Shown: positions 8,659 to 56,076, counted from the stretch's first letter. The stretch is DNA of 64,000 nt from Candidatus Woesearchaeota archaeon (GCA_964455655.1 CAYVWZ010000002.1:24502-88501), one strand, 5' to 3'. The notes: generated by a model from the letters alone, not told the origin. Program-made: numbers and translations.

Positions 8659-8664
8659 AATAAC

Positions 8665-10049: not shown

Positions 10050-10125
10050 ACATCTCTCTGATCTCTTTTATTTTATATAGTTTTGTGTAGGAACACTTTT
10101 AAAACAATGATCCCTAGAGATTACC

Positions 10126-10371
10126 ATGAAAAAAGAACTATGGTTTAAACGAAAACTCTATGGATGGGGATGGTATCCTTCAACATGGCAGGGATGGCTT
10201 TCTACACTAGCATTTATTCTCATTGCTGTAGCTATTAGTTTTATACCAAGAAAACCAACCTTACAAGATTATATTCTTACTTTTGTTCTTCCACTCATTG
10301 TTCTTATTGGAATTTACCTTTTCATTTGTTATAAGAAAGGCGAATCACCAAGATGGCAATGGGGTGCTTAA
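10126..10371 (+). CDS. small hypothetical membrane protein
   Basis: 81 aa with two hydrophobic helices. Confidence 0.35.
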   Translation: MKKELWFKRKLYGWGWYPSTWQGWLSTLAFILIAVAISFIPRKPTLQDYILTFVLPLIVLIGIYLFICYKKGESPRWQWGA

Positions 10372-10374
10372 TCA

Positions 10375-19023: not shown

Positions 19024-21284
19024 AAAAAACAATACTCATCGCATTACTCATTATCATCTTAAGCTCTAGCACTCTCGCTGTCGCAAACTTAGAAAACTTT
19101 GCAGCACTGACCTTTAATCAATACGGAGCAATGGGAATAGAAAAAGCAACAGGAAGTAGCGAATCAGCACAACTCATCGCAAGCTTTGTTGGAGGGGACC
19201 CAACAACAGCAGCATTAAACGCATTTCTCGCACAAGCAGGAAAGAAAGATCCCGATATAGGACAATTACAACAACTTGCAACATGCACTGTTAACCCCCT
19301 AGGATGTGCACAAAGCCAAGTATTAGAACAAACAATGAAATCATTAACACCAGAACAAGCAAAAGCAGTAAACCTCCTAAGTCAAGTCCAAGGAAATGCA
19401 CAATTAGTTGAAGCACTCTTTGAAAAAGGAGAAGAAGGAACCGCAAGTGTTACCGAAAAAGGAGATCTAATCCTTAAAGATGATAAAGGAAATATTCGTT
19501 TACGCCTACCACCAGATACAAAAATAGAACAGGATAAAGAAAATCCTAACAAATATACTTTAAATTCCATGCAAGGAAAAGAAGCGCACTTCTTAGATCA
19601 AACAATAAGTGGTGCTGAAAGCTTAACACTCACTAGAAATCCAGAATTAGGAATAGAAACCATCACCATAACAAAAGGAACCAGTATAACTTATTGTACT
19701 GAGACAGGAACAAATTGTTTAAGTAATCTTGGAGAAGGAACAATCATAACCTCTCACATTATCGATAGAGCTGATGGAAAAAAAGCTACACTTCTCGCTA
19801 GACTACAAACAAAACTTGAGAAAGATACTCCTCACATCACCATCGACGGATATACCTATGATGACCTCAAGAAAGGAGATGTCATTAACTTTGCACGCTC
19901 TGACAATGGACCTAACGAACTAAGAATGATCAGAGCAAATGACGCGTATTCTTTAATGCTCGATGACCAAAAAACAGTCTATGGAAGCTTCGCAATCACA
20001 CGAGAATCAGGAAGAGATCAATACATGACATTATTCACCGGAAGCAGACTTGATACCAACGCAGGAATACCCAATAATGATGTAAGCATTCAAACAAAAG
20101 AACCAATCTACATCAATCTCAATGCAAACAATCTCAATAACTGCGGAGAACGCTGTGCAATAAGCATTATTGGAAATAAATTAACATCAGAACAACTCTC
20201 ACCCTTAACCACTATAATAAAAAAAATTAATGGAGCAGAAGCATACAAACTGACCCAAGCATCAGGATTCACCGTATTTTTAGATAGCAATACTATAAAC
20301 TTCAAAGAGAACGCAGACGCAAGAATAGAAACACAGGGAATAGAATATCACTTCCATAACGGAATGCTCAATCCTGTAACTATAGGAGAAACAGCAATCA
20401 CAAAAAATCTCAAAAACCATCCGACCATCACCTATACTGATATGAACGGACATCAAATGTCAGCAGCACCAACTCAAAGAGGAAATGATATACTCATAGG
20501 ATTTGCTCTAGAAAATGGAGAACTACAAAACACCTTCGCAGTAGAAGAACCCCTACCTGTAGAAGAAAAAGCTATTGATGAACTCCTTGAAAGAGACCAA
20601 GTAACTGCAGAAGAAATGCCTTGGAGCCTCCCACTCGTTACAGAATATTCTTGTAAAGATGGAACAAGAGTTGTATCTAAATCTGTCCACCAACATGATT
20701 CTGTATTCACTGAAGTTGCACCACGTTATGGATACGACCCATCAATACCAAAAGTCGTAATGGATTTAGAATCAAGCGGAAGACCCACAGCATTATCCCC
20801 TCAAGGAGCATATGGACTTATGCAGATCCAAGACCCTACCATGAGAGGACTATTACGAAAACCAACAGGAGACATGTGTAACTCCCTAGGAAAAGTTCAA
20901 GACACAAAACCAGGAATTTACTGCGCATGTAAATTTGATCAATACCCACCAGTAGGAGACTCAAAAAAACTTAGAGAACAAGCAAAACCAGCAGTAGATA
21001 GAGCACTCTGCTATTTACGATACAATGAAGCTGTTTTCATAGAAAAAGGAATTCTAAAAGAAACCGATTCCCAAGAAAAGAAATTAGCATTCTCTCTTGC
21101 AGCATACAATGCAGGACCTGATAAAGTTGAAAAATATGGAGGAGTACCACCATTCAAAGAAACACAGAAATTTGTAGAATGTATAACAAACTATGCAAGT
21201 TCTGTTCAATTAGCACGCACAGACCTCTTAGCTGGACAACAAATAGCTAGTGCTAGACCACCACCAACATCATCAGGCGGTTAG
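19020..21284 (+). CDS. large secreted protein with C-terminal lytic transglycosylase (SLT) domain
   Basis: Signal peptide [25 protein letters not shown] motifs [34 protein letters not shown] and [12 protein letters not shown]. Confidence 0.7.
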
Positions 21285-22126
21285 CGTAGAATTAACAATA
21301 CAAGATTACCTAACCATAACGTTATGATCAATGCAATAAAGAACGAAGGAACAAACGGAATACCATCCTTTACAAGAACTCTTTTTACTTTTAATTTCTT
21401 TAATAAATTCATTTGCTGCTTAGAAACACCAGGTTCTTTCATTGAATAAATTAATTTACCTTTTACAATAACATCTTCAGCAATCCAATCACCCTCTGTA
21501 AGATTTTTTACTTTCAAACGCCTAAACATACACGTTGTTTCTACTGTTTTAACAAAGAGATAGAGAACAACATACCCCATAGATATTCCCCCAAGTATTA
21601 AGAATAATGTGCTATAAATAGTATTTCTCACTGCAAAACTTCCAAGAAGAAATAATACCCCTAAACCACTAAACACCTCACACTGAACTCTAACCTCTTT
21701 AAAGATTCTTTTCAGACCATTGAAGAAATGCCTATGATAACGAATAGCAAGATATATACTCCATACAATTCCATACCCTGCTCCAACAATAACTAGATTT
21801 ACTAAGAAATGAAATAAAAACCATGGTACTATAGAAATAGAACCAAACAATGCTCCAACACCCATCAATAATTTTGTGTCTCCACCACCCCATTGTCGAG
21901 AATAGTACAATCCTTCACCAATAATAGCCATTACTGCTAGACCAACTAAACCAGCAAAAAACATCATCACATCATGTTCAACAATAGCACCAATAGCTCT
22001 TATACCAAGCCCTGCAGCAATTAAACTAAAACTAATCCAATTAGGAATTTCACGACGCTCAATATCCGTTATAGAACCAGCAAATAATCCAACAAGGCCT
22101 ACAATAATAAGAATAAGCTCAATCAC
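21281..22126 (-). CDS. archaeal prepilin/preflagellin peptidase (A24 family, PibD/FlaK-like)
   Basis: Polytopic membrane protein with the two Asp motifs ([12 protein letters not shown] and GGGDTKLL, the GxGD type). Confidence 0.7.
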
Positions 22127-38581: not shown

Positions 38582-39883
38582 ATGTTTAATTTCCTCAAAG
38601 AAAAGCTCAAGAAGGCAGTAGAAAACTTCCAAGATAAAGTAGAAGAAGAAGTACCAGAGCAAGAAAGCCAAGAAGCAATAGAAGTAAAACCAGAAATTAA
38701 AGAAGAATTAAAAGAACAGAAAGAACCTCAGAAAGAAGAAACTCCTACTCTTGAAGAACCGCACGAAAAAGGATTCTTTACAAAACTTAAAGAAAAAATA
38801 ACTAAGAAACAAGAAGTAACAGAAGAAGCAAAAGAACCTATTAAAGAACTAGAAAAACCAGAACATGTTGAAGTCAAAGAAGTACAAGATACCAAAGAGA
38901 CCATCCCACCAGTAGAAGAAGTTGTAGAAGAACCCGCAAAAGAATTCGTTGAACCAGAACCAGCAAAGATCGAAGAACCCGTTCAAGAAGAAATACAAGA
39001 GAAAAAAGGATTCTTCCAATTCGTAAAAGAAAAAGTAACCACCAAAAAAATAGGAGAAGACAAATTTGAAGAATTATTCTGGGACATTGAATTAGCACTC
39101 CTTGAAAACAACGTAGCAGTAGAAGTTATAGAAAAAATCAAGAAAGACTTGAAAACAGTACTCGTAGACAAACCCATTAAGAAAAGCGACTATGACGATA
39201 TTATTTTACTTAGCTTAAAACAAAGCATCAAAGAAGTTCTTAGTATCAAACCAATAGACATCTTACAAAAAATCAAAGAGAAAAAAGAAAGACCATTTGT
39301 CATTGCCTTCATCGGAGTAAACGGAGTTGGAAAAACAACAAGCATAGCAAAAGTAGCACATTACTTAAAAAAACATAATCTCAACGTAATCATTGCAGCA
39401 GGAGACACATGGAGAGCGGGAAGCGTAGAACAACTAGAAACCTGGGCAACACGACTAAACGTCCCATTAGTCAAAGCAGCATACGGAGCAGACCCTGCAA
39501 GCATAGCATACGACGCAATAGCAATGGCAAAATCAAAACACTTAGATGTCGTATTAATAGATACTGCAGGAAGACAGCACAAAAATATCAATTTAATGAG
39601 AGAATTACAAAAAATATTGAATGTAAGTAAAGCAGACTTAACACTCTTAACCGTAGAAAGTATAGTAGGAAACGACGCAGTAGAACAAGCAGCAAACTTT
39701 GGAACAACCATCAATTTAGACGGAAGCATTTTAACAAAATCAGACATTGATGAAAAAGGCGGAGCAATATTATCCATAGCATACATCACTAAGAAACCAA
39801 TAGTCTTCTTAGGAACCGGACAAGAACTAGACAACCTAGAAATATTTGATTCAGAAAAAATCCTAGCACGATTAGGGCTATAA
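38582..39883 (+). CDS. ftsY: signal recognition particle receptor FtsY
   Basis: Acidic EK-rich N-terminal region, then an NG domain with IAFIGVNGVGKTTSIAK, DTAGR, TKSD and GTGQ. Confidence 0.9.
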   Translation: MFNFLKEKLKKAVENFQDKVEEEVPEQESQEAIEVKPEIKEELKEQKEPQKEETPTLEEPHEKGFFTKLKEKITKKQEVTEEAKEPIKELEKPEHVEVKEVQDTKETIPPVEEVVEEPAKEFVEPEPAKIEEPVQEEIQEKKGFFQFVKEKVTTKKIGEDKFEELFWDIELALLENNVAVEVIEKIKKDLKTVLVDKPIKKSDYDDIILLSLKQSIKEVLSIKPIDILQKIKEKKERPFVIAFIGVNGVGKTTSIAKVAHYLKKHNLNVIIAAGDTWRAGSVEQLETWATRLNVPLVKAAYGADPASIAYDAIAMAKSKHLDVVLIDTAGRQHKNINLMRELQKILNVSKADLTLLTVESIVGNDAVEQAANFGTTINLDGSILTKSDIDEKGGAILSIAYITKKPIVFLGTGQELDNLEIFDSEKILARLGL

Positions 39884-42213: not shown

Positions 42214-42685
42214 ATACTAAATCTATCTGAGGTATTTGTATTTGGCTTACATTACCTTTAAAACTTTTGACTATTGTTACGTGAGGCTGAAGAGGGTAGG
42301 GAAGAGTATTATCTCTCTTACTAAGATGCGCTGCAATTATACCTAAGCGTTTCGGATCTGGCTCTTCTTCGAAATACCCATGGACACATTGCCTTACAGC
42401 CTCTTGAATTAAATACTCACGAAGTGCTATGATCCTCCTATCATTATGCGCTAACACTAAATCTCCCTCTCCAAATATCTGCGCTGAACATACGGTAGAG
42501 TCAACAAGTATTGGTAACGATCTTCTTAATCCTTCTTCTAAAACAGGATTTTTAAATAATGGTGACTCTCTCGAGTAAAATATTGTAGAATGATACTCTG
42601 ACTTTCTAGAAAATCCCATAGCTTCTGCATATGCACCTAACGCACTACCACTTGCTTCTGAGAGAACTAATTTGACCATAGACAT
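42185..42685 (-). CDS. 2H phosphoesterase superfamily protein (LigT/ThpR-like)
   Basis: Two H-x-T-x motifs (YHSTIFY and PHVTIVK) with appropriate spacing. Confidence 0.5.
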   Translation of the reverse strand: MSMVKLVLSEASGSALGAYAEAMGFSRKSEYHSTIFYSRESPLFKNPVLEEGLRRSLPILVDSTVCSAQIFGEGDLVLAHNDRRIIALREYLIQEAVRQCVHGYFEEEPDPKRLGIIAAHLSKRDNTLPYPLQPHVTIVKSFKGNVSQIQIPQIDLVYDQYEWEEN

Positions 42686-42737
42686 ACCAAAAAGAGCTTC
42701 CCAAGAACTTAAAAACCTTCAGTTCTGCCTAATAAAC

Positions 42738-44084
42738 ATGGTTTTAGAAAAACTTGGAGAAGGGCTCAGAAGTACCTTAAAGAAGATAGCAAGCAGTATA
42801 TTCATAGACGAAAGACTCGTAAATGAACTCATCAAAGACATCCAAAAAGCACTCTTACAAGCTGACGTTAATGTCAAATTAGTATTTGAATTAACTAACA
42901 AAATCAAAGAACGAGCGCTCCATGAAGAAGCACCACCCACATTAGATAAGAAAGAACACTTAATCAATATTGTATACGAAGAACTTGTAATATTCTTAGG
43001 TGAAGAAAAAGCAGAAATCGTTCCTGAAGGAAAGAAACCCTATATTATCATGATGGTAGGACTCTTCGGATCAGGAAAAACAACCACTACAGGAAAATTA
43101 GCAAAATATTACGCACAACGAGGTCATAAAGTAGCAACGATGGGATTAGACGTTCATCGCCCAGCAGCAATAGACCAATTAGAACAAGTAAGTAAACAAG
43201 TTGGAGTAAAATGTTTTAGTAAGAGAGGAGAAAAAGACGTAACAAAAATTTACAAGAGTTTTGAATCAGAAATAAAAAATTATGATTTATTACTTATTGA
43301 CACAGCAGGAAGAGATGCATTAAGCCAAGATTTGATTAAGGAAATTGAAACACTCAACAAAATCGCACAACCAGAACAACGATTACTCGTAATTAATGCA
43401 GACATAGGACAAGCAGCACAAGCACAAGCACAAGCATTCCACGACGCAGTGCACGTTACGGGAGTTATTATTACAAAACTAGATGGAACAGCAAAAGGAG
43501 GGGGGGCACTCACTGCATGCGCAGTAAGCGGAGCAAAAATAAGATTCATCGGAACAGGAGAAAAAGCAGAAGATCTCGAAGTATTCAACCCAAAAGGATT
43601 TGTAGGAAGACTCTTAGGAATGGGAGATCTAGAAGCACTACTAGAAAAAGCAAAACATGCAATCAGCGAAGAACAAGCAGAAGATCTAGGAAAGAAATTC
43701 TTGAAAGGAGATTACAACTTCTTAGACTTATACGAACAAACACAAGCAATGAAAAAAATGGGACCACTAACAAAAGTTCTCGACATGATACCCGGAATGG
43801 GAAATATGAATATACCGAAAGACATGCTTGAAGTACAACAAGAAAAATTAGAAAAATGGAAATATTTAATGCAATCAATGACAAAAGAAGAATTAGAAGA
43901 TCCAGAAATTATCACAACAGCAAGAATAGAGAGAATCGCAAAAGGATCAGGAAATAGTGTTGGAGAAGTAAGAGATTTATTAAAACAATATCGACAGAGC
44001 AAGAAAATGATGAAAATGATGAAAGGGAAAAATCCAGAAAAAATGTTAAAAAAATTTGGAAATATGAAAGGAATGAAATTCTAA
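42738..44084 (+). CDS. srp54: signal recognition particle protein SRP54
   Basis: MVLEKLGEGL start (the track ORF begins 22 codons earlier). NG domain MMVGLFGSGKTTTTGKLA, DTAGR. Met-rich M domain at the C-terminus. Confidence 0.9.
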   Translation: MVLEKLGEGLRSTLKKIASSIFIDERLVNELIKDIQKALLQADVNVKLVFELTNKIKERALHEEAPPTLDKKEHLINIVYEELVIFLGEEKAEIVPEGKKPYIIMMVGLFGSGKTTTTGKLAKYYAQRGHKVATMGLDVHRPAAIDQLEQVSKQVGVKCFSKRGEKDVTKIYKSFESEIKNYDLLLIDTAGRDALSQDLIKEIETLNKIAQPEQRLLVINADIGQAAQAQAQAFHDAVHVTGVIITKLDGTAKGGGALTACAVSGAKIRFIGTGEKAEDLEVFNPKGFVGRLLGMGDLEALLEKAKHAISEEQAEDLGKKFLKGDYNFLDLYEQTQAMKKMGPLTKVLDMIPGMGNMNIPKDMLEVQQEKLEKWKYLMQSMTKEELEDPEIITTARIERIAKGSGNSVGEVRDLLKQYRQSKKMMKMMKGKNPEKMLKKFGNMKGMKF

Positions 44085-44117: not shown

Positions 44118-45074
44118 ATGCGATATCGTTATGCATTATTATTTTTATTAGTATTAATTCTTATTACTGCATGTACTCGAACACCTGAACCCGGTACAAA
44201 CACAAAAGAATACACTCTCGAACACGACGGAATAACAAGAACATACCAAGTACACACTCCACCGAGTTATGATGGAACAAAAGCACTACCCGTTGTTATT
44301 TACTTACACGGTGGTGGAGGAAGCATTAAAGCAGCATATGCTGACAATAAAGATAGAGATGCTGACAAACTAGGATTTATACTTGTAGTACCAGAAGGAA
44401 CAGGATGGTTAGAACATAGAGCATTAACATGGAACTCAGGAAAATGGGCAACAGGAGATTGTTGTGGACCTGCATACAAAAACAATGTAGACGATGTCGG
44501 ATACATTTCAGCATTAATAGACGCAGTTGGAGAAAAATATACTATTGATACTAAACGCGTTTATGCCACTGGAATTTCAAATGGTGGAATGATGAGCTAT
44601 CGCTTAGCTTGCGAATTGCCAAATAAGATAGCTGCGGTTGCACCCGTTGCAGCACCAGCAATACCTGATGATTGTAACCCTTCAAGACCAATAGCCGTTA
44701 TGGATGTTCAAGGAGCATTAGATCCTTGTGTTCCTATTGATGGAGGGCCTGGTGGTGGATGCTTACCTGGAGCTAAAGAATTTACTGTACCCTCTCAAGA
44801 AGAAAGAGTTGCATTCTGGACTAAAAATAATCATTGTTCTAATCAAACAACTACAACTTACAACAAAGGAGAAGCTACCTGTGTACGTTATGAGTCATGC
44901 GATTCTAATTCAGAAGTAGATTATTGTATTATAGGAAATGGTGGACATACATGGCCAAGCGGTAATCAATACTTATCAGCAGAAAAAGTTGGCCCTGTAT
45001 CTTACGATATGAACTTCGAACAAATGTATGAATTCTTAAAAGTTCATTCAACAACACAACTTCTTATTGAGTAA
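44118..45074 (+). CDS. lipoprotein esterase, poly(3-hydroxybutyrate) depolymerase/LpqC-like alpha/beta hydrolase
   Basis: Lipobox LITAC. VVIYLHGGGGS...GFILVVPEG...YATGISNGGMMSYRLAC, with a GxSxG nucleophile elbow. Confidence 0.6.
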   Translation: MRYRYALLFLLVLILITACTRTPEPGTNTKEYTLEHDGITRTYQVHTPPSYDGTKALPVVIYLHGGGGSIKAAYADNKDRDADKLGFILVVPEGTGWLEHRALTWNSGKWATGDCCGPAYKNNVDDVGYISALIDAVGEKYTIDTKRVYATGISNGGMMSYRLACELPNKIAAVAPVAAPAIPDDCNPSRPIAVMDVQGALDPCVPIDGGPGGGCLPGAKEFTVPSQEERVAFWTKNNHCSNQTTTTYNKGEATCVRYESCDSNSEVDYCIIGNGGHTWPSGNQYLSAEKVGPVSYDMNFEQMYEFLKVHSTTQLLIE

Positions 45075-45113: not shown

Positions 45114-45860
45114 TTGATCATGCATAAAAGAGGGCAAGTAACCATATTCGTTATACTAGGAATAGTAATCGTTGTTCTTGTTGCTCTTCTGTTCTTATTC
45201 CGAAGTAATCTCAATATTTCAGGCGGAGGAAAAACTCCTACCAATATCAAAGAATTCACAGAGAGTTGTGTAGACCAAGTAGGAAGAGAAGCACTCATCA
45301 AAGTAGGAATACAAGGAGGATACTATAATGTTCCAGCATCTACAACATCAGTACATAGAGAAGAACCAGCATATGGATCAATTACTATCCCCGTATGGAA
45401 TTTTGGAGCTGAATCAGAAATACCCTCACTCATCACTATTAATCAAGAAATAAATTCTTACTTCAAAGACCACTTTAACGACTGTATCAATGACTATTCC
45501 TCATACTCAAATGAAGGATGGACTGTAGAATCAGGAGAAATTAATGTAAACACCGACTTCCAAAGCGGACAAACCGTACTAGCCGCAAACTACCCTGTGA
45601 CTGCAACAAAACAAGAAGAAACAGTGACCTTCGATGCATTAACACCAATAACCATACCATGGGATTTCCTTAATACCTATGAAACAGGATCAGAAGCAGC
45701 AGCACTCTTCGGAAGACAACGAGCAATACCCGCAAATTATGTTATCTCACAGGGATATGGATTCTTAACCTTTAATCAAAATGGAACAATAATATTTAGA
45801 ATTACATCACAAAAAGACGATGAGGAGAAGAAATACGTTCTAGCCTATGCGGTTTATTAA
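45114..45860 (+). CDS. archaeal type IV pilin-like protein (class III signal peptide KRGQ-VTIFV), partner of giant surface protein
   Basis: MIMHKRGQVTIFVILGIVIVVLVALLF. Conserved TESCVDQ region. Its stop overlaps the start of 45847. Confidence 0.6.
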   Translation: MIMHKRGQVTIFVILGIVIVVLVALLFLFRSNLNISGGGKTPTNIKEFTESCVDQVGREALIKVGIQGGYYNVPASTTSVHREEPAYGSITIPVWNFGAESEIPSLITINQEINSYFKDHFNDCINDYSSYSNEGWTVESGEINVNTDFQSGQTVLAANYPVTATKQEETVTFDALTPITIPWDFLNTYETGSEAAALFGRQRAIPANYVISQGYGFLTFNQNGTIIFRITSQKDDEEKKYVLAYAVY

Positions 45861-48800
45861 ATATCTTTTATTTTTTGTACTCATTGCTCTTCTCATTCTA
45901 CCATTTGTTACCGCAGCAAGTTCATGTACTTACACCTGTGCATGCACACCTGGAGCATGTTCCTCCTATGATCCAGAAAAACAATTCAATTATGTATGTA
46001 GCGAAGACTTTTGGAGCAGCGACTGCGGAGGAGGAACCGGAACTATTGATTGGACAGAAGTAGGACCTGACCAAAACATCCCTGTAGAAGACTTAATCCT
46101 TATTCTTGAACTCCAACCAGAAGAACTCAATAATATACCAGGACCCTTAGATTCAACAACGGGAATAGACCAAAATATTGTGTTTGAAGCATTACAAGAA
46201 GCAAGCCTTATCACACCACCTATTAGAATATGGGGAACTGATGGAGTTGTTGCTGGAGATAACCTCGATGAACAACTAGACTGTACAACATTCGAAACAG
46301 GATGCTCGCTCACTTACATTAACGGAGCATACATCCTCGAAGCAGGAGGGGTAGCGTTCAATCTTAACAAACTAGGCGGAAGCACCATTAAAACACATAA
46401 TGAAGTTCCAACATTATCCATACCTGTACAACTTCTTGGAGACATTGCACCATCAGGAAGTGTTATGAGTTGTGGAGACGTACCCTTTGAAATTAATACG
46501 GGAATCCCTGAAGGATATACAAAAACAGAAGCATACGTAGCAGACATTGGTTGCGATACAAGAGAGGGACAACAAACACTCATCATTAGCGGAGGAGTTA
46601 CGATCAACGCAGCAGGATTCACCTTCGACAATAACGGAAATTCAACAGAAGGAACACTAAACCTCTTCTTAAATGGAGTAGGAGAAGGAGATGGAATATT
46701 CTTAGTTGATGGAAATATTGTCTTACAAGGAACTATTGATCAAGACTTTAGCTTAGTAAATAATTGTGTAGGATTCAAATGGGACTCACAAACACAGACA
46801 TTAAACCCATCAGCTGATCAAGCAGGAACTTGCGAAATAGATCCATTCGGAGCAGCATTTAATGTAACACTTCCTAACGGAGAAGTTGTAAGCATTATAG
46901 GAAATGCATGTGTTGTTTACGAAAACGGATATTGTCACAACTTTGCAAGCGATCAAGCATTAGACGATCCAACATGCTTATGTCAAACTGCAGCAGATCC
47001 CGGATTAGCAAATATTACAGAAGAAAATTGCGCGAAAGCAATAGGCCTTGATGAGAGTAAAGACCTTACTGAACAAGAAATGGAAGAATTATGCTCATCA
47101 AACGGCGGAATGTACTGTGCGAAACCAGAAACATATCCATCACTCTGCATGAGAAAAGTAAAAGGAAGACCAATACCAGAAGATACTTCTGCATGGGTAG
47201 CTGAAATAGAAGACAGAATTGCACAATGTGAATCAGGAAATGCATCAGTAGGATGCGAAGAAAATGGAACTATACCAACAGCAGAAAATTGTGCAGAACT
47301 TCTTGGATTACCTCCTGGATATGATAAAACCATGCAAGAAATGGTAGACTATTGTGCATCACATGGAGGGCAATACTGCCCTAATTACCAATACGATACC
47401 ATATGTTTACGAAAAGCAAAGGGAAGGCCAGTGCCAGAAGATCCATCAGCATGGAGAGCAGAAGTTGTAGGTAATGTTGACAAATGTACTGCAGGACAAA
47501 TAGTTGCATGCCCTGGCAATGAAACAATTCCACCAGGAGGTGGAGGCGGAGGACCTGGAGAAAAATCAGTAATACTCTGTAGCGAATTAGAACCAAAAGA
47601 TCAACCAGCAGCACCTAACCCTCAATATTGTTTAGCCACATTAGAATGTAAACCCGGAACTACTTGTGAAGACTCTAAAACATGTAATTGTACACAAAAA
47701 CAATGTAGAAGACTATCATCAGACGATGCACCATCACCTGACTGTTTACAATTCGCAAGAAATGCAGGAAATTCAGAAGAATACTGTGACGATGACGTAG
47801 ATTATGAAAACAAAATAAGCAGCGGAGGAAGATTCGAATTCGTACTCAAAAGCGACGGTGGAGGAACATTCTTCGTTGCAGAAGCAAGCGTAATGAAACC
47901 TGATAGCGATGGAGTTAAACGATGTCAACCATTCGGAAACTTTGGAAATAATCCACCATTCCCAACTATAGCAAAAATGACTGCAGCAGATGATGGAAAA
48001 ATAATCACTCTACCAAAATCAAGTGGCAAGTTTACCCTAGGAACTTACGGAGGAGCAATGAATGAAGGATGGCTCTGCCCAGAAGGATCCGCTAGCGGAG
48101 GAAATAATTCAAAATCATGTAACACTGACTCTGAATGTGGAAGTGGAGAAGTATGTGCATGTACAAGCGCAAGCTGTCTTGCAAATGGGACCTCACCAAC
48201 ATGTGGAAATGGAAAATGTGACAATGGAGAAACAGCAACAACATGCCCAGCAGACTGTGGAACACCACAAGTAACACCTCAATGTACACCTGGAAAGAAA
48301 GAACAATGCTTTACCAACCCAGAAGATAAGAGCTGCTTTATGCAGAGAACATGCACAAGCAATAGCACATGGGGAAGCTGTACACGAGCAGACGATGTAT
48401 GTAAATCAAGCTGCACTGATGGAATACAACTCAGTTGTCCAAGACAATATGGAGTATGCGCAGGAAGCAAACAAACATGCTCAAACTCAGCATGGCCTGG
48501 ATGTGATTATACAAAAGTTCAAGGATATGAACCATCAGAACAAAGTTGTGATAATTTAGACAATGACTGCGATGGAGTAACCGATGAAGGATGCTTATGT
48601 GGATTGGGATCTAACAGAGCATGCGGAACAGACACTGGAGCATGTCAAGCAGGAACTCAAGCATGTGTTAATGGAAAATACAATAACACCTGCGCAAGCG
48701 GAACACTACCCATACAAGAAGCATGCGGAGACGGAATTGATAATGATTGCGACGGAAGCATTGATGAAATGTGCCCATGCGGAACAACATACGGAGAAGG

Positions 48801-49794
48801 ATTCAATAGAACATGCGGACAAAACGCATGCGGAAGCGGAATACAATACTGCCAAAATAATGGAGGAGTATTACGATTTACTGAATGTGTAGGAGCACCA
48901 ATACCCACCTTTGAACGATGCGGAGATAGCATTGATAATGATTGTGACTTATCAGTTGATGAAGGATGCGGATGTGTAGAAGATCGAGCATGTGGAACAA
49001 ACCAAACAGGAGTATGTAAAGCAGGAATACAAAAATGTGGACCTAACAACCTCTATGGAACTTGCGAAGGAGCAGTATATCCTGTAACAGAAAAATGCGG
49101 AGATAAATTAGACAATGATTGCGACGGAAGCACTGATGAGAACTGTCCATGTACCACAGGAGATACAAGATCATGTAATGGCGTAGGAGTATGTAAAGGA
49201 ATTACTGTATCATGCGTCAATGGAACATTCCCCACATGTAATTATGCAAATGTAAGCAAGTACGAACGAGAAGAAGTATCATGTACTGATAAATTAGACA
49301 ATGATTGCGACAACAAAACTGACGCTGAAGACTTAAGCTGTGAAGACGATTCAAGCATTGATTGCAGCGACGGAACACCAAACAAACAATGCTCCGAAAC
49401 AAAACCAAACTACTGTGATGGAGGAAACTTAATACAGAAATGTAACACATGCCTCTGCTTATCAGGAGAACGATGCGACATTACAGGAAAATGCGTAGAA
49501 GACTACATACCACCTATCGATGAAGGAACAGATGACGGAACTACTGGCGGAACGGGAACAAGCAGATGTAATTATGATGATATTTGCGATCCAAATGAAT
49601 CATCAGTTACGTGCAGCGATTGCGAATTAACAGGTGGAACGGGAACAAGCACCGATGAAGGAACAGGAAGTACAAAACTCTTAGGAATAGCCTTACTCGT
49701 AGCAGGATTAGCCATACTTGCTGTAGCACTCATACAACGAAAGAAACCTCAAAAACCACAGGGAGGACAACAAGTTGCCAACCCCAAAAGATAA
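45847..49794 (+). CDS. giant surface protein (1315 aa) with Cys-rich DNDCDG (MopE-like putative metal-binding) repeats and C-terminal TM anchor
   Basis: Signal peptide. At least 6 repeats of CGD.(L/I)DNDCDG..DE.C. Thr/Gly linkers. C-terminal TM LLGIALLVAGLAILAVALI followed by a basic tail. Confidence 0.7.
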   Translation: MRFIKYLLFFVLIALLILPFVTAASSCTYTCACTPGACSSYDPEKQFNYVCSEDFWSSDCGGGTGTIDWTEVGPDQNIPVEDLILILELQPEELNNIPGPLDSTTGIDQNIVFEALQEASLITPPIRIWGTDGVVAGDNLDEQLDCTTFETGCSLTYINGAYILEAGGVAFNLNKLGGSTIKTHNEVPTLSIPVQLLGDIAPSGSVMSCGDVPFEINTGIPEGYTKTEAYVADIGCDTREGQQTLIISGGVTINAAGFTFDNNGNSTEGTLNLFLNGVGEGDGIFLVDGNIVLQGTIDQDFSLVNNCVGFKWDSQTQTLNPSADQAGTCEIDPFGAAFNVTLPNGEVVSIIGNACVVYENGYCHNFASDQALDDPTCLCQTAADPGLANITEENCAKAIGLDESKDLTEQEMEELCSSNGGMYCAKPETYPSLCMRKVKGRPIPEDTSAWVAEIEDRIAQCESGNASVGCEENGTIPTAENCAELLGLPPGYDKTMQEMVDYCASHGGQYCPNYQYDTICLRKAKGRPVPEDPSAWRAEVVGNVDKCTAGQIVACPGNETIPPGGGGGGPGEKSVILCSELEPKDQPAAPNPQYCLATLECKPGTTCEDSKTCNCTQKQCRRLSSDDAPSPDCLQFARNAGNSEEYCDDDVDYENKISSGGRFEFVLKSDGGGTFFVAEASVMKPDSDGVKRCQPFGNFGNNPPFPTIAKMTAADDGKIITLPKSSGKFTLGTYGGAMNEGWLCPEGSASGGNNSKSCNTDSECGSGEVCACTSASCLANGTSPTCGNGKCDNGETATTCPADCGTPQVTPQCTPGKKEQCFTNPEDKSCFMQRTCTSNSTWGSCTRADDVCKSSCTDGIQLSCPRQYGVCAGSKQTCSNSAWPGCDYTKVQGYEPSEQSCDNLDNDCDGVTDEGCLCGLGSNRACGTDTGACQAGTQACVNGKYNNTCASGTLPIQEACGDGIDNDCDGSIDEMCPCGTTYGEGFNRTCGQNACGSGIQYCQNNGGVLRFTECVGAPIPTFERCGDSIDNDCDLSVDEGCGCVEDRACGTNQTGVCKAGIQKCGPNNLYGTCEGAVYPVTEKCGDKLDNDCDGSTDENCPCTTGDTRSCNGVGVCKGITVSCVNGTFPTCNYANVSKYEREEVSCTDKLDNDCDNKTDAEDLSCEDDSSIDCSDGTPNKQCSETKPNYCDGGNLIQKCNTCLCLSGERCDITGKCVEDYIPPIDEGTDDGTTGGTGTSRCNYDDICDPNESSVTCSDCELTGGTGTSTDEGTGSTKLLGIALLVAGLAILAVALIQRKKPQKPQGGQQVANPKR

Positions 49795-50377
49795 TCCTCA
49801 AGAGAAAAAAACAGAGAAAACATCAATACTTAAAGACCCTAGCATGAAAGACATAATCCTTGGAGGAGCTCTTCTTGTATTAGGAATATTCATTCTTATT
49901 TTAGGACTAGCAGGAACATCACTTTTCCCAAAAACACTAGAAATCATATTAGCAGTACTTATCCTTGGAGGAGGAATAGGATATTCACTCTATAGATATA
50001 AACATCCTCCATTAACAGAAGAACACCAACTCGTAACATCACCAATCTCAACAATACAACAACAACTATCAGAACACAAAAATGTTTACCAACTCAATCA
50101 ATACGTATCAACATTACTCCAACGTGGAAAGAAAGAACAAGAAATAAAGAATTTATGTAAAACAGCTGGATGGAGCGAGAAAGAAGTTAGTGATGCACTT
50201 GATCGTGCAAGAAAAACAACTAAAGCAGATCCTTACAAACAAATAGAAGACTATATTACACTACAACTTGCAAAAGGAACCTCACCAGAAAATATCCAAG
50301 TAACCTTACAAAAAGCAGGCTGGAAAAAAGAAGTTATAGACACACTCATTAAAAAGAATTCTCAAAAGAAAAAGTAA
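49775..50377 (+). CDS. membrane protein with two cytoplasmic KAGW repeats (tail-domain paralog of the 50869 protein C-terminus)
   Basis: TTG start with a GGGAGG RBS; alternatively the ATG at 49844. Two TM helices. Repeats KKEQEIKNLCKTAGWSEKEVSDAL and SPENIQVTLQKAGWKKEVIDTL. Confidence 0.5.
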   Translation: MPTPKDNPQEKKTEKTSILKDPSMKDIILGGALLVLGIFILILGLAGTSLFPKTLEIILAVLILGGGIGYSLYRYKHPPLTEEHQLVTSPISTIQQQLSEHKNVYQLNQYVSTLLQRGKKEQEIKNLCKTAGWSEKEVSDALDRARKTTKADPYKQIEDYITLQLAKGTSPENIQVTLQKAGWKKEVIDTLIKKNSQKKK

Positions 50378-50410
50378 ACTTTAATAAGCATCATAGCGCC
50401 ATCACAACAT

Positions 50411-50872
50411 ATGAATAAGAGAGGTCAGGTGACTGTATTTGTTATTATCGGTATAGTCCTCATTATTATTCTTGCAATTGTTTTTGTTATACTAAGAACT
50501 CCTGCAGGAGTAAAAGCACCACAAGATACTGATGAACTTACTGAAGCATTACAAATTTGTTTAGAAGAACAACTTAGCACAGGAGTCGCACATCCCTTAT
50601 TCGCATCATTCCCCACTATAGACTTATCAAAACAATGGTTAGAAAATAATACAAAAACAAATTTCATTCAAAATTGTGCACCTATAGCAGAAAATTATCC
50701 TGGAGCAACAACAAAAGAAGAACTTATTACATCACAAGTCTTAATCCAAGGACCAGATCTTAATACTTTTGAAATTATTAGAGTAACTATTAATTTCCCC
50801 GTAACTATAACACAGGGCACTTCAACAGAACAATTGCCCGTAATCATTGCAGAGGTCTATGAACACCAATGA
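50411..50872 (+). CDS. archaeal type IV pilin-like protein (class III signal peptide KRGQ-VTVFV), partner of giant surface protein
   Basis: MNKRGQVTVFVIIGIVLIIILAIVFVIL. Conserved LQICLEEQ region. Its stop overlaps the start of 50869. Confidence 0.6.
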   Translation: MNKRGQVTVFVIIGIVLIIILAIVFVILRTPAGVKAPQDTDELTEALQICLEEQLSTGVAHPLFASFPTIDLSKQWLENNTKTNFIQNCAPIAENYPGATTKEELITSQVLIQGPDLNTFEIIRVTINFPVTITQGTSTEQLPVIIAEVYEHQ

Positions 50873-53800
50873 AAAAATTGTTTGTTTTATTCTTAATTCT
50901 TATTTTACTTTGTACTGTTATTGTTGTTGCTGAAGAATATACACCAGATGGATGCTTAAAATCTGGAGGGAACGGAGCAGAATTTTGTGATGATGAGAAA
51001 GATTATCATAAATTTATCAGTGGAGGAGGTCCTGTAACATTCCACGTCCATAGTGATGGAGGGGGAACATTCTTTATCGCAGAAGCAAGCGCAATGGAAC
51101 ACTGCCAAGACTTCGGAACATTTGACACTCCGCCATTTAAAACTGTAGCAACATTTAGCCCCTCTGAAGACGGGAAATCTATCACATTACCACCTGCAGC
51201 ATCAGGAATGTACACTCTAGGAACATACGGTGGAAATAAAAACGAGGGATATGTTTGCCCCGGTGGAAGCGGAGGCGGAGATCTTAACGGACAAGAAGGA
51301 TCTGGAAGTTCTGGAGGAAGCACTAGTGGTTCAGGCAAAAGCTCCGGAGGAACATCTGGAGGAAATGCGCCAGGCCCCGTATCAGAAGGAGTATGTTCAA
51401 AAGATGTTGATCTCGATTGTAGAAGATCAGACAAAGTAACAAGTGAAGCATGTAAATCTGCTGTAAGCCCACTCTATACATACACTGCATGTCCAAATCA
51501 AAAAGTATCAATCACCTATAACATTCAAACACTCGAATGCGGAGACGAATTAGGATTACGCATTGCAAAATATGATGGAGCAGGAGGATGGACTCCATTA
51601 GAAGATAGTAATGTTGTAAGTAATGGAGACGGAACAGGAACCGTAACCGCAACAACAAACTCCGATGCAACATTCGCAGTCATTGCAACAGGAGAATGTG
51701 TACCTCAATGTTATCAAAATGTCTATGATTATCCAGATCCTGTGCTTGGAGGAAGCAGCATCACTCTTGGAGCATGTGGCTCCGCAATACCAGCAACTGA
51801 AGAAGCAGCACAAGAAGAAACTCAAGATACAACAACAGAAACATTACCAGAAGAAACATGCTTTGAAAAATTAACACGACTCAAATCAACAGGAACTATT
51901 GGAAGCGAATTATTCTGGGAACGATGCGAAGAAAGTTGTAATGGAGAAGACTATGGTCCAACAGCAGACGCAGAACATTGCTGCGCAACAGGATGCCAAG
52001 CAGGAACTAATGAAAATCCCTACACTACACCAAGCGAAAGCTTCGCATTACCTGATTTAGATACTATTGCACCAGCACTCTTCATTATTCGAAGAGATGA
52101 GTGTAATGCAAACCAAGGAATTGTATCATCAGATCAAAAAGGGGCAGTCTGTCCAAAAGGATATCAATTTGGCGGAAGCTTCAAAATAGGAAATGAAGAA
52201 GATGGATGTAATGGAGATCAACAATACACCGGAATTGCAAAAACAAGCAATGGATACACAACAGCAACGATCACGAAAGGATGGGTAGACCTCTGCACGA
52301 AAAATCAAATAGCATACTTAACAAAAGCACGAGATGAATGTTTAGTAAAACCATTAGATGATTCAGTATCTCTTGGCGAATATGCTAAGAGCGCTCCTGA
52401 TTCAGCAGCATCACTCTATTGCCCTAAAGGAAGCGTTGTTTGCGGAGGCTCAGATTATCAAACCGTTGGTAGGGAATATTCAAGACGAGAATCATTTACT
52501 ACATTCTACTGTTGTGAAACAACATTACAACTCCAAGAATCAGAAGAAAATCTTGCAGCACCATCAGGACAACTTGCATCAGCATATTGTTCAGAAGAAA
52601 ACTCACTTGCTACAGGAGCACGATTCGGACCAAGTTATGAAGATGAAAATGAAATCGATCAACTCTTCTGCTCAAAAACACCTAAAGCACAAGTCCTCAA
52701 ATCACAAAGAACTATTTTACAATCAGAGACAGACCCTCTTGATAGGGCATCATCACTATTCTGTGAGCGTTATGGACCTGACTATGCAGTATGCGGAGGA
52801 ATTAATAATGACCAAACTGGAAGTGCACTAGACATTGGTTCGCTCTACTGTTGTCAAATTAAAGAAACTCTTACTCCTTGTAAACCTGGATATGTATTAA
52901 CAGGAACTATCAAAGTAAATAATGAAGCTAATGATCGTTGTAATGTTGATCCAACACAAGCACAAACTGAATATGGATGGACTGCTGAAGGAGCAAAAAT
53001 AATTTCAGGACATGTAGGAATATGCGTCAAGAGCAGCGAAATAGAACAACTCGATCAACCCCTTCTCGAAGTTCCTGAAAGCGTCACAACAGGAACTGTT
53101 GGCACTTTTACCCCACCAGAACATGCAATCCCTCTAGGAAGACTTACTACAACAGCAAACTATGAACAAGCAATATTCCCAACACTCTCATCAACAGAGG
53201 GAGAAGAAAACCAAGAAGCAACACTTGAATCAGGAACTATAGGATTCTATGTAAAACTAAATCATCCTCTCGTAAACTTCTGCGGATCAGCATCATTCGA
53301 TAATGGAACATGCACTGAAGAATTATGCGTCTCAACAGACGGAACATTTGCATGTAAAGCAACAACAGAAATAGAAGATGCAGTACAAGACTATTATGCA
53401 TACGTCTGTGACTTTACAGGATGCCCAAGCTCTAACTTTACAAGCGGAAATAACAAATATTATGGAACAGGAAATTATCAAATATGTTCAAGCTCAGAAG
53501 CATGCGGACTAGTAGGACCAAGCAGTGAATGTGTAGATGTAGATACTGATGGATATTGTAGTGATGTAGACTGTGATGATAATTTAATAGAAGTAAACCC
53601 TGACGCAGCAGAAATATGCGATGGAATAGACAATGATTGCGACTTAAGCATTGATGAAGACTTTGACTTAGACAATGACACCGTATCAACATGCGCAACC
53701 GTTCCAGACTGTGACGATACCAACGGAACAATATCTCCTCTTGCAGGAGAAACATGCGGAAACAGTATCGATGAAAACTGTGATGGAAACGCAACCGTAT

Positions 53801-56076
53801 GCCCAACATGCGAAAATGATGGAACAGACGAAGACTTAGACGGAGTATGTAGTAATGCAGGAGACTGCGATGATGGAAATAATACTATTTATGCAAACGC
53901 AACAGAATTCTGCGATGATGGAATAGACCAAGACTGTGATGGAAGCGACAATGCATGCCCACCAGAACCACAATGTACACCTGGAGTTTACAGAGTATGC
54001 TATCCAACACCAGAAAATAAAACTTATACGTATCACCAACAATGCGGAGAAGATCAACTATGGGGCGTATGCGAACCAGACTATCTCTTAGGAGTCCCAC
54101 CAAATGTTCCAACACCCGCATGTACTGACGGATTCCAATTAACATGCCCAAGACAACAAGGAGTATGCGCTGGAAGCGCACAAACATGCACCGGAAGCTC
54201 TTGGCCTGGATGTAGTTATGCAAATATTCCAGGATATAGCACAACAGACCTCTGCGGAGACTATCTCGATAATAATTGCGACGGAAGCGTAGACGAAAAT
54301 TGTCCATGTATTGAAGGACAAAACATTACTTGTGGAAGTAGTGTAGGCATATGCGAAGCAGGAACACAACTCTGTAAAAACGCAAAATGGCAAACATGCA
54401 CACCAAAAGTAGAAGGAACACCAGAAATATTCTTCGATCAAAAAGACAATGATTGCGATGGAGCAGTAGATGAAGGATTTGATTGCTCACAAACATTCGG
54501 AATAGGATTCAATAGAAGTTGTGGAGAAGCAAGCGGAGGAGTTTGTAAATTCGGAATACAACAATGTACTGATAAATTATTCTTAAACATGACCGTCATG
54601 GGAATATGCCAAGGAAGCGTCAACCCAGGACAAGAAATATGCGATGCTGTAGACAATGATTGTGACGGAAGCGGAGACGAAGGATGTGCATGCACCACAG
54701 GACAAAAACAATCATGCGGACTAGGAGTAGGAATATGCGGAACAGGACACCAAGACTGTATCAATAGCACATGGAGCGTATGCTTAAACGTAACACAACC
54801 ACAGACAGAGAAATGTGGAGACTTACTTGATAACGATTGCGACGGAAGCGTAGACGAAAACTGTCCATGCGCAGGAAACCAAACCAGTATCCTTTGCAGC
54901 AAACAATTAGGAGTATGCAACGGAACAAAAGCAATGTGTGTTAATGGTAAATTTGAAGATTGTAATGCAATATACGATGACCTTGATGATTACGAAGTCA
55001 TAGAACAAACTTGTAATGATAAACTCGACAACGACTGTGATAACTCAACAGATGATAATGATCCAGGACAATGTGGAGAACTAACAGGAAGCGACAAATG
55101 CAGTGACGGAACACTCGTAGGACAATGTGTCAACAGAGGAAAAGAATCAACATTCTGTAACAGCCTAGGAAACTTAGTAGAATTATGTAGTACTTGTGAT
55201 GCAGACTGTGAACCAGGAATAAGCGTTTGTAATATTAACGGAGAATGTAAAGACTTACCAACAAGAGGAACTGGAGGAACCGGAGGAACAGAAGAAGATT
55301 GTAATTATGATGGAGTCTGCGACTCATTAGAAACAACTGCATGTAGCGATTGCAGTGATACAAGTGGAGGAAGAGACACAACATCAGATAGCGGAATACC
55401 ATGGTTATGGATCATCCTAGGAATCATACTCTTAGGAATCATTGTAGGTGGTGCATACTACCTCATGAAGAGAAAAAAGAAACCAGACGACAAAAAACCA
55501 TTAACACCAACACAAATACGAACCATAGAACAACCAGCAGTAACACAACAACAACTCAAACAAACAAGACAAGAAAACGATATCAAACAATTACAAGACT
55601 ATATCACAAGAAGTTTGAAACAAGGCAAAAAACTACAAGACATCAAAGACTTATGCAAAAAAGCAGGATGGAACGATCAAGAAATTAATCAATGCCTAGG
55701 AAGCGCACAACAAGTAGTAAAGAAAAATCCAGAACAATCATTACAAGACCTAGAAAATTATGCAATAGTCTCCTTCAAAAAAGGATTACAAGACAGAGAC
55801 ATACGAAAAAAACTATTAGGAGCAGGATGGAAATCACAACTTGTTGACAAAGCAATACTTAATGCAAAAATAGACCTTGCAAGACAAACAAGCCAACAAC
55901 GACCACAACCTGTAGCTCGAAACTCCGATGAAGAAGCATATGCTGATAAGAAACTAAATGAAATGCTTGATAAAAAACCAGAAAATAAGAACTCTGGACT
56001 CAAAACAACCACCGTAGAAGGTAATCAAGAATACATACTAGATTCTAAGAAAGGCCGAAAAGCTAAAAAGAAGTAA
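50869..56076 (+). CDS. giant surface protein (1735 aa) with Cys-rich DNDCDG repeats, C-terminal TM anchor and cytoplasmic KAGW-repeat tail
   Basis: Signal peptide. N-terminal GGGTFFIAEASAME domain shared with the 45847 protein. About 9 DNDCDG-type repeats. TM WLWIILGIILLGIIVGGAYYL. Tail with KKLQDIKDLCKKAGWNDQEINQCL. Confidence 0.7.
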   Translation: MKKLFVLFLILILLCTVIVVAEEYTPDGCLKSGGNGAEFCDDEKDYHKFISGGGPVTFHVHSDGGGTFFIAEASAMEHCQDFGTFDTPPFKTVATFSPSEDGKSITLPPAASGMYTLGTYGGNKNEGYVCPGGSGGGDLNGQEGSGSSGGSTSGSGKSSGGTSGGNAPGPVSEGVCSKDVDLDCRRSDKVTSEACKSAVSPLYTYTACPNQKVSITYNIQTLECGDELGLRIAKYDGAGGWTPLEDSNVVSNGDGTGTVTATTNSDATFAVIATGECVPQCYQNVYDYPDPVLGGSSITLGACGSAIPATEEAAQEETQDTTTETLPEETCFEKLTRLKSTGTIGSELFWERCEESCNGEDYGPTADAEHCCATGCQAGTNENPYTTPSESFALPDLDTIAPALFIIRRDECNANQGIVSSDQKGAVCPKGYQFGGSFKIGNEEDGCNGDQQYTGIAKTSNGYTTATITKGWVDLCTKNQIAYLTKARDECLVKPLDDSVSLGEYAKSAPDSAASLYCPKGSVVCGGSDYQTVGREYSRRESFTTFYCCETTLQLQESEENLAAPSGQLASAYCSEENSLATGARFGPSYEDENEIDQLFCSKTPKAQVLKSQRTILQSETDPLDRASSLFCERYGPDYAVCGGINNDQTGSALDIGSLYCCQIKETLTPCKPGYVLTGTIKVNNEANDRCNVDPTQAQTEYGWTAEGAKIISGHVGICVKSSEIEQLDQPLLEVPESVTTGTVGTFTPPEHAIPLGRLTTTANYEQAIFPTLSSTEGEENQEATLESGTIGFYVKLNHPLVNFCGSASFDNGTCTEELCVSTDGTFACKATTEIEDAVQDYYAYVCDFTGCPSSNFTSGNNKYYGTGNYQICSSSEACGLVGPSSECVDVDTDGYCSDVDCDDNLIEVNPDAAEICDGIDNDCDLSIDEDFDLDNDTVSTCATVPDCDDTNGTISPLAGETCGNSIDENCDGNATVCPTCENDGTDEDLDGVCSNAGDCDDGNNTIYANATEFCDDGIDQDCDGSDNACPPEPQCTPGVYRVCYPTPENKTYTYHQQCGEDQLWGVCEPDYLLGVPPNVPTPACTDGFQLTCPRQQGVCAGSAQTCTGSSWPGCSYANIPGYSTTDLCGDYLDNNCDGSVDENCPCIEGQNITCGSSVGICEAGTQLCKNAKWQTCTPKVEGTPEIFFDQKDNDCDGAVDEGFDCSQTFGIGFNRSCGEASGGVCKFGIQQCTDKLFLNMTVMGICQGSVNPGQEICDAVDNDCDGSGDEGCACTTGQKQSCGLGVGICGTGHQDCINSTWSVCLNVTQPQTEKCGDLLDNDCDGSVDENCPCAGNQTSILCSKQLGVCNGTKAMCVNGKFEDCNAIYDDLDDYEVIEQTCNDKLDNDCDNSTDDNDPGQCGELTGSDKCSDGTLVGQCVNRGKESTFCNSLGNLVELCSTCDADCEPGISVCNINGECKDLPTRGTGGTGGTEEDCNYDGVCDSLETTACSDCSDTSGGRDTTSDSGIPWLWIILGIILLGIIVGGAYYLMKRKKKPDDKKPLTPTQIRTIEQPAVTQQQLKQTRQENDIKQLQDYITRSLKQGKKLQDIKDLCKKAGWNDQEINQCLGSAQQVVKKNPEQSLQDLENYAIVSFKKGLQDRDIRKKLLGAGWKSQLVDKAILNAKIDLARQTSQQRPQPVARNSDEEAYADKKLNEMLDKKPENKNSGLKTTTVEGNQEYILDSKKGRKAKKK

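Follow-up and report, generated by a model that had tools for sequence, protein, structure and literature searches.

Three cassettes of a common two-gene design were found in a 64,000-nucleotide (nt) stretch of DNA from Candidatus Woesearchaeota archaeon (GCA_964455655.1 CAYVWZ010000002.1:24502-88501), which is referred to as a whole as the window. Each cassette (18286-21284, 45120-49794 and 50411-56076) comprises a gene for a small protein with a prepilin-like N-terminus and, overlapping its end, a gene for a large secreted protein. As judged from sequence, the small protein is a member of one very large family confined to DPANN archaea of the Woese-, Pace- and Nanoarchaeota group. This small protein is the conserved element of the pair. 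The large partner is highly variable, and the giant proteins with MopE-type motifs, which are encoded by the two tandem cassettes, represent one lineage-specific partner type. We favor the idea that each cassette specifies a two-subunit cell-surface complex, in which a prepilin-type subunit would act as anchor or adaptor for one particular surface effector. We assign a probability of roughly 0.55 to this reading, whose processing and assembly steps we infer. The window encodes eRF1, RadA, RPA, TruD and SRP54, which identifies it as archaeal DNA.

Three cassettes and one small-protein family

The genes of the cassettes and the adjacent peptidase gene are listed below (aa, amino acids; TM, transmembrane; ORF, open reading frame; a slash separates positions -1 and +1 of a leader).

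18286-19023, plus strand: small3, 245 aa, beginning MQSKRKG/...
19020-21284, plus strand: partner of small3, 754 aa, secreted, with a C-terminal SLT domain; ATGA overlap with small3
21281-22126, minus strand: A24-family prepilin (class III signal) peptidase (PF01478, 1.3e-12, 48.5 bits), convergent with cassette 3
45120-45860, plus strand: small1, 246 aa, MHKRG/QVTIFVILGIV..., with conserved Cys50 and Cys122
45847-49794, plus strand: giant1, 1315 aa, Sec-type signal peptide, PF11617 at 49.4 bits
49775-50377, plus strand: putative detached tail of giant1, 2 TM helices and two RecX-like helical "GW" repeats; first ATG at 49844
50411-50872, plus strand: small2, a shortened family member, 153 aa, MNKRG/QVTVFVIIGIV...
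50869-56076, plus strand: giant2, 1735 aa, signal peptide, ATGA overlap with small2, PF11617 at 110.1 bits

The initial annotation had placed two cassettes in this DNA. The tandem pair with its two small and two giant ORFs was indeed present as described, except that the start of small1 had to be moved: its ORF is open from 45114, and the ATG at 45120 (MHKRGQVT...) is the likely start. The count had to be corrected, as the cassette at 18286-21284, which abuts the A24 peptidase gene, had been missed. The overlap of each small-gene stop with the giant start was likewise found. It comprises 14 nt in cassette 1, where the small1 stop (45858-45860) lies inside the start of giant1, and an ATGA in cassette 2. 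The gene at 21281-22126, previously named a prepilin peptidase gene, exceeds the Pfam gathering cutoff for Peptidase_A24 (PF01478, 26.5 bits).

Kinship of the small proteins was assessed with a family hidden Markov model (HMM) built from 43 homologues, none of which came from the window. When run against 248 ORF segments of the window, the model retrieved small1 (1.8e-63), small3 (6.7e-34) and small2 (1.6e-16), and no fourth family member was detected among these segments. Small3 is additionally linked to small1 by BLASTP (1e-8). Pairwise alignment of small1 and small2, for which homology had been proposed, yielded a weak match (E 5e-4) covering the N-terminal 60 aa only; their homology is nevertheless firm because the non-window profile scores both. 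An exhaustive profile search returned 8,703 clusters (50% identity) at E≤1e-3 and 6,196 clusters at E≤1e-10. Record titles of family-bearing loci read Woesearchaeota, Pacearchaeota, Nanoarchaeota/Nanoarchaeia or unclassified "archaeon"; some family-bearing metagenome-assembled genomes are titled "uncultured Methanosarcinales", a label that is unconfirmed. Mature lengths are about 640, 240-255 and 370-440 aa, and each of these forms has distinct partner families. No Pfam or NCBIfam match was obtained for the short, intermediate or long form. Ten long or intermediate members scanned against Pfam gave zero matches, a precomputed Pfam domain was present in none of the 54 small-protein homologues listed, and neither Pfam nor a PDB profile search revealed a PepSY match. 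A metagenome scan with small3 as the only query gave no match.

The small-protein N-terminus conforms to the prepilin-type (class III) signal of archaea, as had been noted for the two small proteins of the tandem pair. The FlaFind-type pattern, i.e. a short basic leader ending in [KR]-[GA] and followed by a hydrophobic stretch of ~20 residues, is present in all three window members and in 139 relatives. The leader consensus reads K-[RK]-[GA]/Q-V-T-[IV]-F-[IV]-I, with ~22 hydrophobic residues following the Q (a run from +2 to about +22). Over 139 distinct family members, position -3 is K in 120, position -2 is K or R in 133, and position -1 is mostly G (124), with A in 14 members and S in a single one; F at +5 and G or A at +9 each occur in 138. 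Family alignments show Q at +1 and T at +3 without exception; in the 139-member count these two residues were partly imposed by the search pattern. Among pilins, Gln at +1 is a typical feature of those processed by EppA in Methanococcus. Short forms have a leader of 5 residues, and long forms a basic one of 20-30 residues that still ends in K-G/Q. As the membrane helix is conserved while the ectodomains of family members are only ~25% identical, the N-terminus may interact with a shared machinery rather than serve as a plain anchor.

An AlphaFold2 (AF2) model based on a 47-sequence alignment (predicted local distance difference test (pLDDT) 91.9, predicted template modelling score (pTM) 0.81) arranges the small protein as a TM helix (residues 4-30), a linker (30-36) and three helix-plus-sheet units, with the two invariant Cys residues (50 and 122) in the first two ectodomain helices. 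The small protein is thus predicted to consist of an N-terminal helix, a variable linker and a compact alpha/beta ectodomain carrying one conserved Cys pair. This confident model matched no solved structure and had no clear pilin match.

Pairing across genomes and metagenomes

Gene neighborhoods were compared in two independent sets of related loci from DPANN genomes and metagenomes, comprising 80 genome and 80 metagenome loci (160 in total) of Woese-, Pace- and Nanoarchaeota. Informative were 76 loci of the genome set and 57 of the metagenome set, i.e. 133 overall, and in ~93% of these the downstream ORF begins within ~180 nt of the small-gene stop, most often overlapping it; an overlap or a gap of a few tens of nt is the rule. 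In the genome set the next ORF starts between -71 and +181 nt from the stop, with an exact ATGA overlap in 25 cases; the next gene is short or unrelated at 4 of the 76 loci. The downstream ORFs are large: among 64 complete ones in the genome set, 92% have at least 500 aa and the median is 1239 aa, as compared to a median of 231 aa for all ORFs of the loci. The metagenome set gave a similar picture, with 54 of 57 informative loci paired and a median of 1114 aa for 40 complete partners (97.5% with at least 500 aa).

The partners form at least four multi-member families and about 17 singletons; the commonest family, of about 1350-2200 aa, occurs at 34 of the 76 genome loci. Nearly all complete partners (65 of 67) possess an N-terminal signal-like segment but no C-terminal TM. 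Comparison of small-ectodomain clusters with partner clusters gave an adjusted Rand index of about 0.8. When 41 representative partners were scanned against Pfam (E≤1e-4), sporadic Ig, fn3 or glucodextranase-B-type domains appeared in a few only. Neither a PilY1 C-terminal propeller nor a DUF2341 domain was detected by Pfam in these partners, in the window giants (scanned at E≤0.1) or in the SLT partner of small3 (E≤0.001).

Conservation of the pairing in related DPANN genomes, which the initial annotation had named as a point to check, is borne out by the recurrence of the small-then-large order in both 80-locus sets. The accompanying idea of a fixed functional pairing rather than a simple duplication is supported as well, given that both components are homologous, the double cassette is kept in a relative and the pairing is widespread. 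This relative is represented by L093 and L094, two independent assemblies of one related genome, in which the double cassette (246, 1464, 152 and 1427 aa) lies between the SRP54 and RIO kinase genes. Its small protein is only 42% identical, and small2 has a 152-aa orthologue in L093 with 30% identity (E 7e-13). The same succession of SRP54, small and giant genes is kept in the relatives L005, L006 and L093, with small proteins that are 42-47% identical. A mobile or viral origin of the locus was considered and rejected: it lies between SRP54 and RIO kinase plus tRNA-Gln, and synteny is conserved in relatives.

In the window, SRP54 (42672-44084) is located upstream of cassette 1 with a single gene in between, and FtsY (38582-39883) is found ~5 kb upstream of the cassette. 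The intervening gene (44118-45074), directly upstream of small1, encodes a 318-aa secreted, lipoprotein-like hydrolase of the esterase or polyhydroxybutyrate (PHB)-depolymerase type, which matches several alpha/beta-hydrolase models in Pfam (Esterase PF00756, 31 bits at a cutoff of 22; Esterase_PHB PF10503, 28.7 bits at a cutoff of 23). It is kept only in the closest relatives (L001-L003), its place being taken by a 485-aa gene in L005 and an 87-aa gene in L093.

Two further features were observed among the related loci. A conserved ORF of ~190 aa is present in 20 of the 160 loci. Its representative in L097 (10320-11060, MNNKGKVIVEILVMLVVIV...) lies downstream of the gene for a ~1970-aa "ALEISNV" partner, which is paired with a long-form (~670-aa) small protein, and may constitute a third component of this pair type. 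A Cys-rich partner family (4-6% Cys, N-terminal CC-E-K motif; L032, L034, L038, L041, L049 and L083) has strong TM segments in mid-protein (~aa 570-760) followed by ~500 aa, a topology unlike that of all other partners. In two members inspected, L032 and L034, the region following the TM segments looks repetitive.

Architecture of the large partners

Giant1 and giant2 are homologous, as had been anticipated: they share 43% identity across ~490 aa of Cys modules and 52% across a 109-aa domain containing the motif GGGTFF. Their elements are as follows.

47758-48081, plus strand: GGGTFF domain of giant1 (~105 aa)
48412-49332, plus strand: five 8-Cys/MopE modules of giant1
49678-49734, plus strand: TM helix of giant1
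50959-51261, plus strand: GGGTFF domain of giant2, just past the signal peptide
53563-53958, plus strand: MopE-only motifs of giant2
54121-55062, plus strand: five 8-Cys/MopE modules of giant2
55393-55449, plus strand: TM of giant2
55525-55857, plus strand: helical repeats of giant2, inside its 208-aa cytoplasmic tail

In giant1, the signal peptide is followed by a variable region of ~260 aa and two ~90-aa repeats, which precede the GGGTFF domain. The suspected MopE-type motif (PF11617), a putative metal-binding motif, was recovered above the gathering cutoff of 27 bits in both proteins, in 4 stretches of giant1 and 7 stretches of giant2. Repeats of a Cys module had been reported in 6-9 copies. 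The repeats themselves stand, and their number was revised to five full modules per giant, each of ~60 aa with 8 Cys and with the D-N-D-C-D-G-x-x-D-E motif as its second half; giant2 has 3-4 additional motifs of the MopE-only type. A two-module segment was modeled by AF2 with moderate confidence (pLDDT 71.6) and displays short beta-hairpins; neither its sequence nor its fold could be linked to a solved structure.

The initial annotation had further ascribed a single C-terminal TM helix to each giant. This TM was found, but the description was incomplete: giant2 continues into its 208-aa tail, and for giant1 two more TM helices and a tail are encoded by the separate ORF 49775-50377. The product of this ORF is homologous to the giant2 tail (E 3e-21), matches residues 1293-1462 of the L093 giant (E 1e-38) and has a weak NCBIfam match to RecX (3e-5). 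The giant1 orthologues in L093/L094 comprise TM, loop, two more TMs and tail within one ORF. ORF 49775-50377 therefore appears to be the detached TM and cytoplasmic tail of giant1, and fusion of the tail to the giant in these orthologues points to a frameshift or recent split within 49775-49794. Giant1 and the tail are in different frames, near a run of CCCCAAAA; the break could reflect faulty assembly, a recent split of the gene or a pseudogenizing event. Since the detached tail is homologous to that of giant2 and fused in the orthologues, both giants share one plan, i.e. signal peptide, ectodomain, TM segment(s) and a cytoplasmic tail with helical repeats.

Conservation along this plan is uneven. 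Between the window giants and their L093/L094 orthologues the stalk of Cys modules is 56% and the tail 42% identical. The N-terminal ~260 aa of giant1 and both GGGTFF domains have no counterpart in these orthologues. The GGGTFF domain also occupies different positions in giant1 and giant2, and its absence from the orthologues together with its different placement in the paralogues points to recent domain acquisition and shuffling between cassettes. Adhesins and receptor-binding proteins usually combine a conserved stalk with variable distal domains.

The large protein of cassette 3 is of a different kind. Its SLT domain (PF01464, aa 563-614) scores 44 bits (E 1.8e-11) at a gathering cutoff of 21.3 bits, and no C-terminal TM is present in its 754 aa.

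A second cluster, at 1592-8658 (plus strand), mixes small proteins bearing class III-like signals with murein hydrolases. The small proteins include those encoded at 1592-2041 (KKG/LELSINTIII), 2075-2650 and 4279-4824, whereas murein hydrolysis is represented by an M23 peptidase (2682-3734) and by an SLT protein (4805-6250) that begins ...KRG/LVFGPYAAAALL. This cluster may encode a pilus-like apparatus armed against bacterial cell walls. It is directly followed by the RPA gene (8665-9642). Likewise, an operon for ~14 class III-like proteins ends just before an RPA gene in L007. There (L007/L008, Woesearchaeota CG10_36_11, 1-10408), the gene for a 2090-aa giant with CarboxypepD_reg repeats is followed by genes for ~14 small proteins, nearly all with K/R-G/A-Q-type leaders, and the operon closes with the gene for a 135-aa truncated member of the present family (P0006). 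The arrangement looks like a large pilus or pseudopilus operon.

Possible function and relation to known systems

In the mechanism we favor, the gene overlap would cause translational coupling and hence production of the small and large protein at a ratio of about 1:1. The A24 peptidase (21281-22126) may then remove the leader of the small protein, and the processed hydrophobic helix would retain this subunit in the membrane or as part of a short pilus-like stub. Its ectodomain would bind the cognate, Sec-exported large protein, which would thereby be held at the surface. Giant1 and giant2 would form Cys-rich rods, probably binding metal or Ca through the MopE motif, with variable distal domains and with a TM and cytoplasmic tail of their own. 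They are probably membrane-spanning adhesins or receptors for contact with host or prey, the small subunit being a membrane-proximal co-subunit. With TM segments and cytoplasmic tails of their own, the giants could not be carried off on a pilus tip. The cargo of cassette 3 would be a murein lytic transglycosylase, tethered through the small subunit alone and directed at bacterial cell walls, and for most partners of the family the small subunit may likewise be the sole tether. We infer adhesion or host interaction as the role of these modules. Interpretation of the pairs as toxin and immunity protein was rejected, as both proteins are extracytoplasmic and the SLT protein needs no immunity protein, given that archaea have no murein.

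Several observations weigh against this two-subunit model. In the AF2 model, the low-confidence linker (residues 30-36, inside a non-helical stretch at 31-39) parts the TM helix from the ectodomain, whereas a classical pilin has a single continuous alpha-1 helix. A Pfam scan of 26 window ORFs revealed neither a type IV filament (TFF) secretion ATPase nor a TadC/FlaJ platform protein, and no ATPase or platform family recurs among the neighbors of the 160 loci. Tblastn searches with the SLT, M23 and A24 proteins of the window yielded no hits in 95 related loci (L001-L095), so that, at the sensitivity of BLAST, adjacency to an A24 gene is not conserved. Anchoring by the small subunit would be redundant for giant1 and giant2, which have TM anchors of their own, and the proposal is least certain about what this subunit does in these two cassettes. 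Finally, cleavage, complex formation and localization of the small and large protein are predictions made from sequence.

The competing explanations differ in what they make of the leader and of the partner. Bacterial minor pilins carry PilY1, and by analogy the small protein might, as a minor pilin, prime or cap a type IV filament and bear the large protein at the filament tip. The class III-type leader, the presence of an A24 peptidase gene and the prevalence of TM-less partners with Sec signals, as in PilY1, would agree with this, and adhesins on archaeal type IV filaments are established, filament loci often including adhesin- or S-layer-like proteins (PMC4858521; bioRxiv 10.64898/2026.04.22.720090). 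However, giant1 and giant2 possess membrane anchors in the form of TM segments and extend into the cytoplasm, the pairs are free-standing and occur several times per genome outside ATPase/platform operons, the variable linker is unlike the alpha-1 helix of pilins, and PilY1 and DUF2341 domains are absent from the window partners and the 41 related ones scanned. We thus consider tip display unlikely. A model dispensing with prepilin processing altogether, in which an unprocessed signal-anchor protein acts as dedicated chaperone or assembly factor to fold its large, disulfide-rich partner after Sec export, would account for the predicted succession of TM helix, flexible linker and globular domain, for a fold that is not clearly pilin-like and for the lack of TFF machinery nearby; the gene overlap is compatible with co-production in this case, too. 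What makes it quite unlikely is the leader: a simple anchor does not need a near-invariant K-[RK]-[GA] with F at +5 and G/A at +9, kept despite ectodomains of such low identity, nor would the long forms be expected to retain K-G/Q at the end of their extended basic leaders. Moreover, one family member (in L007) resides within an operon of other class III-like proteins.

Very unlikely, in our view, is a two-component surface (S-) layer resembling SlaA/SlaB of Sulfolobales, composed of a large lattice protein and a small membrane stalk. A large, TM-less secreted protein encoded beside a smaller membrane-anchored one would suit it, the commonest partner family could be a lattice protein, and a DPANN-specific cluster described as "secreted protein next to S-layer-like proteins" has been noted (PMC6393860). 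Yet there are several different pairs per genome, three in the window alone; the window partners are TM-anchored Cys-rich rods and a murein hydrolase rather than lattice formers, and the anchor is N-terminal, as opposed to C-terminal in SlaB. Mere chance adjacency or local duplication of uncoupled genes, to which the tandem, paralogous arrangement of two cassettes might be attributed, is hardly credible in view of a pairing that holds across distant lineages and unrelated partners in about 93% of the informative loci, the retention of both cassettes in a relative whose small protein is only 42% identical, and the co-variation of small-protein subfamilies with partner families.

Extending the two-subunit model to the whole family, the small proteins might be the universal "handle" of a prepilin-peptidase-dependent display system across Woese-, Pace- and Nanoarchaeota. 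Each genome would possess several dedicated adaptors, each co-translated with and specific for one large host-interaction protein (adhesin, murein hydrolase or S-layer-like), which would be loaded onto a membrane stub or short type IV-like filament. We put this forward tentatively, as a generalization that may well prove too broad. If true, type IV filament substrates would gain a new functional class, and the display system would be the main means by which these ultra-small archaea arm their surface for contact with host or prey.

Little is known about the ways in which DPANN archaea attach to their hosts and exploit them, since the bulk of their surface proteins lack annotation. An unnamed family of at least 6,000 clusters at 50% identity flags the neighboring gene as one for a large secreted surface protein, and thereby provides a simple genomic rule to find candidate host-interaction proteins in Woese-, Pace- and Nanoarchaeota. 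The data suggest that adhesins and cell-wall-cutting enzymes are mounted on the DPANN cell surface in a general manner that has not been described before, and lead to the testable hypothesis of prepilin-peptidase-dependent anchoring via a dedicated subunit. In the literature searched, no paper was found that describes the small-protein family or the one-to-one pairing. PMC6393860 reports DPANN "dark-matter" pilins and the clusters cls.004306 (NEQ255), the "secreted protein next to S-layer-like proteins" mentioned above, and cls.004634 (CMH64_01370), a double PepSY-like one; the small-protein family might already be catalogued under one of these.

Taken together, the cassettes combine features of several known systems. 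The partner in cassette 3 resembles the large, secreted murein lytic transglycosylases already reported from Woese- and Pacearchaeota (fam00969, PMC8204110; PMC9723730). A word search of both papers for "pilin" or "pili" gave no hit, so that the upstream pilin-like partner is apparently unmentioned there; cassette 3 now places this published enzyme type in an operon with such a gene. Giant1 and giant2 share tandem D-N-D-C-D-G-x-x-D-E motifs with PF11617 proteins such as MopE of Methylococcus and Cys-rich surface proteins of Myxococcus. In contrast to these, the motif here is the C-terminal half of a ~60-aa 8-Cys module and belongs to predicted archaeal type I membrane proteins with a cytoplasmic tail. 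SlaA/SlaB of Sulfolobales are similar in that the gene for a large outer protein is adjacent to that for a smaller, membrane-anchoring protein; SlaB, however, has its TM anchor at the C-terminus and does not resemble a pilin, whereas the present small proteins have an N-terminal class III-type anchor and diverse, multi-copy partners. In the minor pilin and PilY1/PilC sets (Pseudomonas fimU-pilVWXY1E), a pilin-type small gene is located directly upstream of a large non-pilin adhesin gene with Sec signal, and surface presentation of the adhesin requires the small protein, as we propose for the cassettes. Unlike these sets, the cassettes are free-standing, repeated within a genome and composed of one-to-one overlapping genes; their partners lack PilY1-like Pfam matches, the small protein has no clear pilin match in its fold, and the window giants are TM-anchored. 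The Sulfolobus bindosome, finally, consists of PibD-processed sugar-binding proteins with class III signals, and there, too, such a signal positions a functional surface protein instead of building a motility or adhesion filament (PMC6098224). In the bindosome the functional protein itself bears the signal, whereas in the cassettes a separate, dedicated subunit does so and the cargo has a Sec signal. The cassettes are best classed as a variation on a known kind of system, a pilin-type subunit with a surface effector, built here on a very large, uncharacterized protein family.

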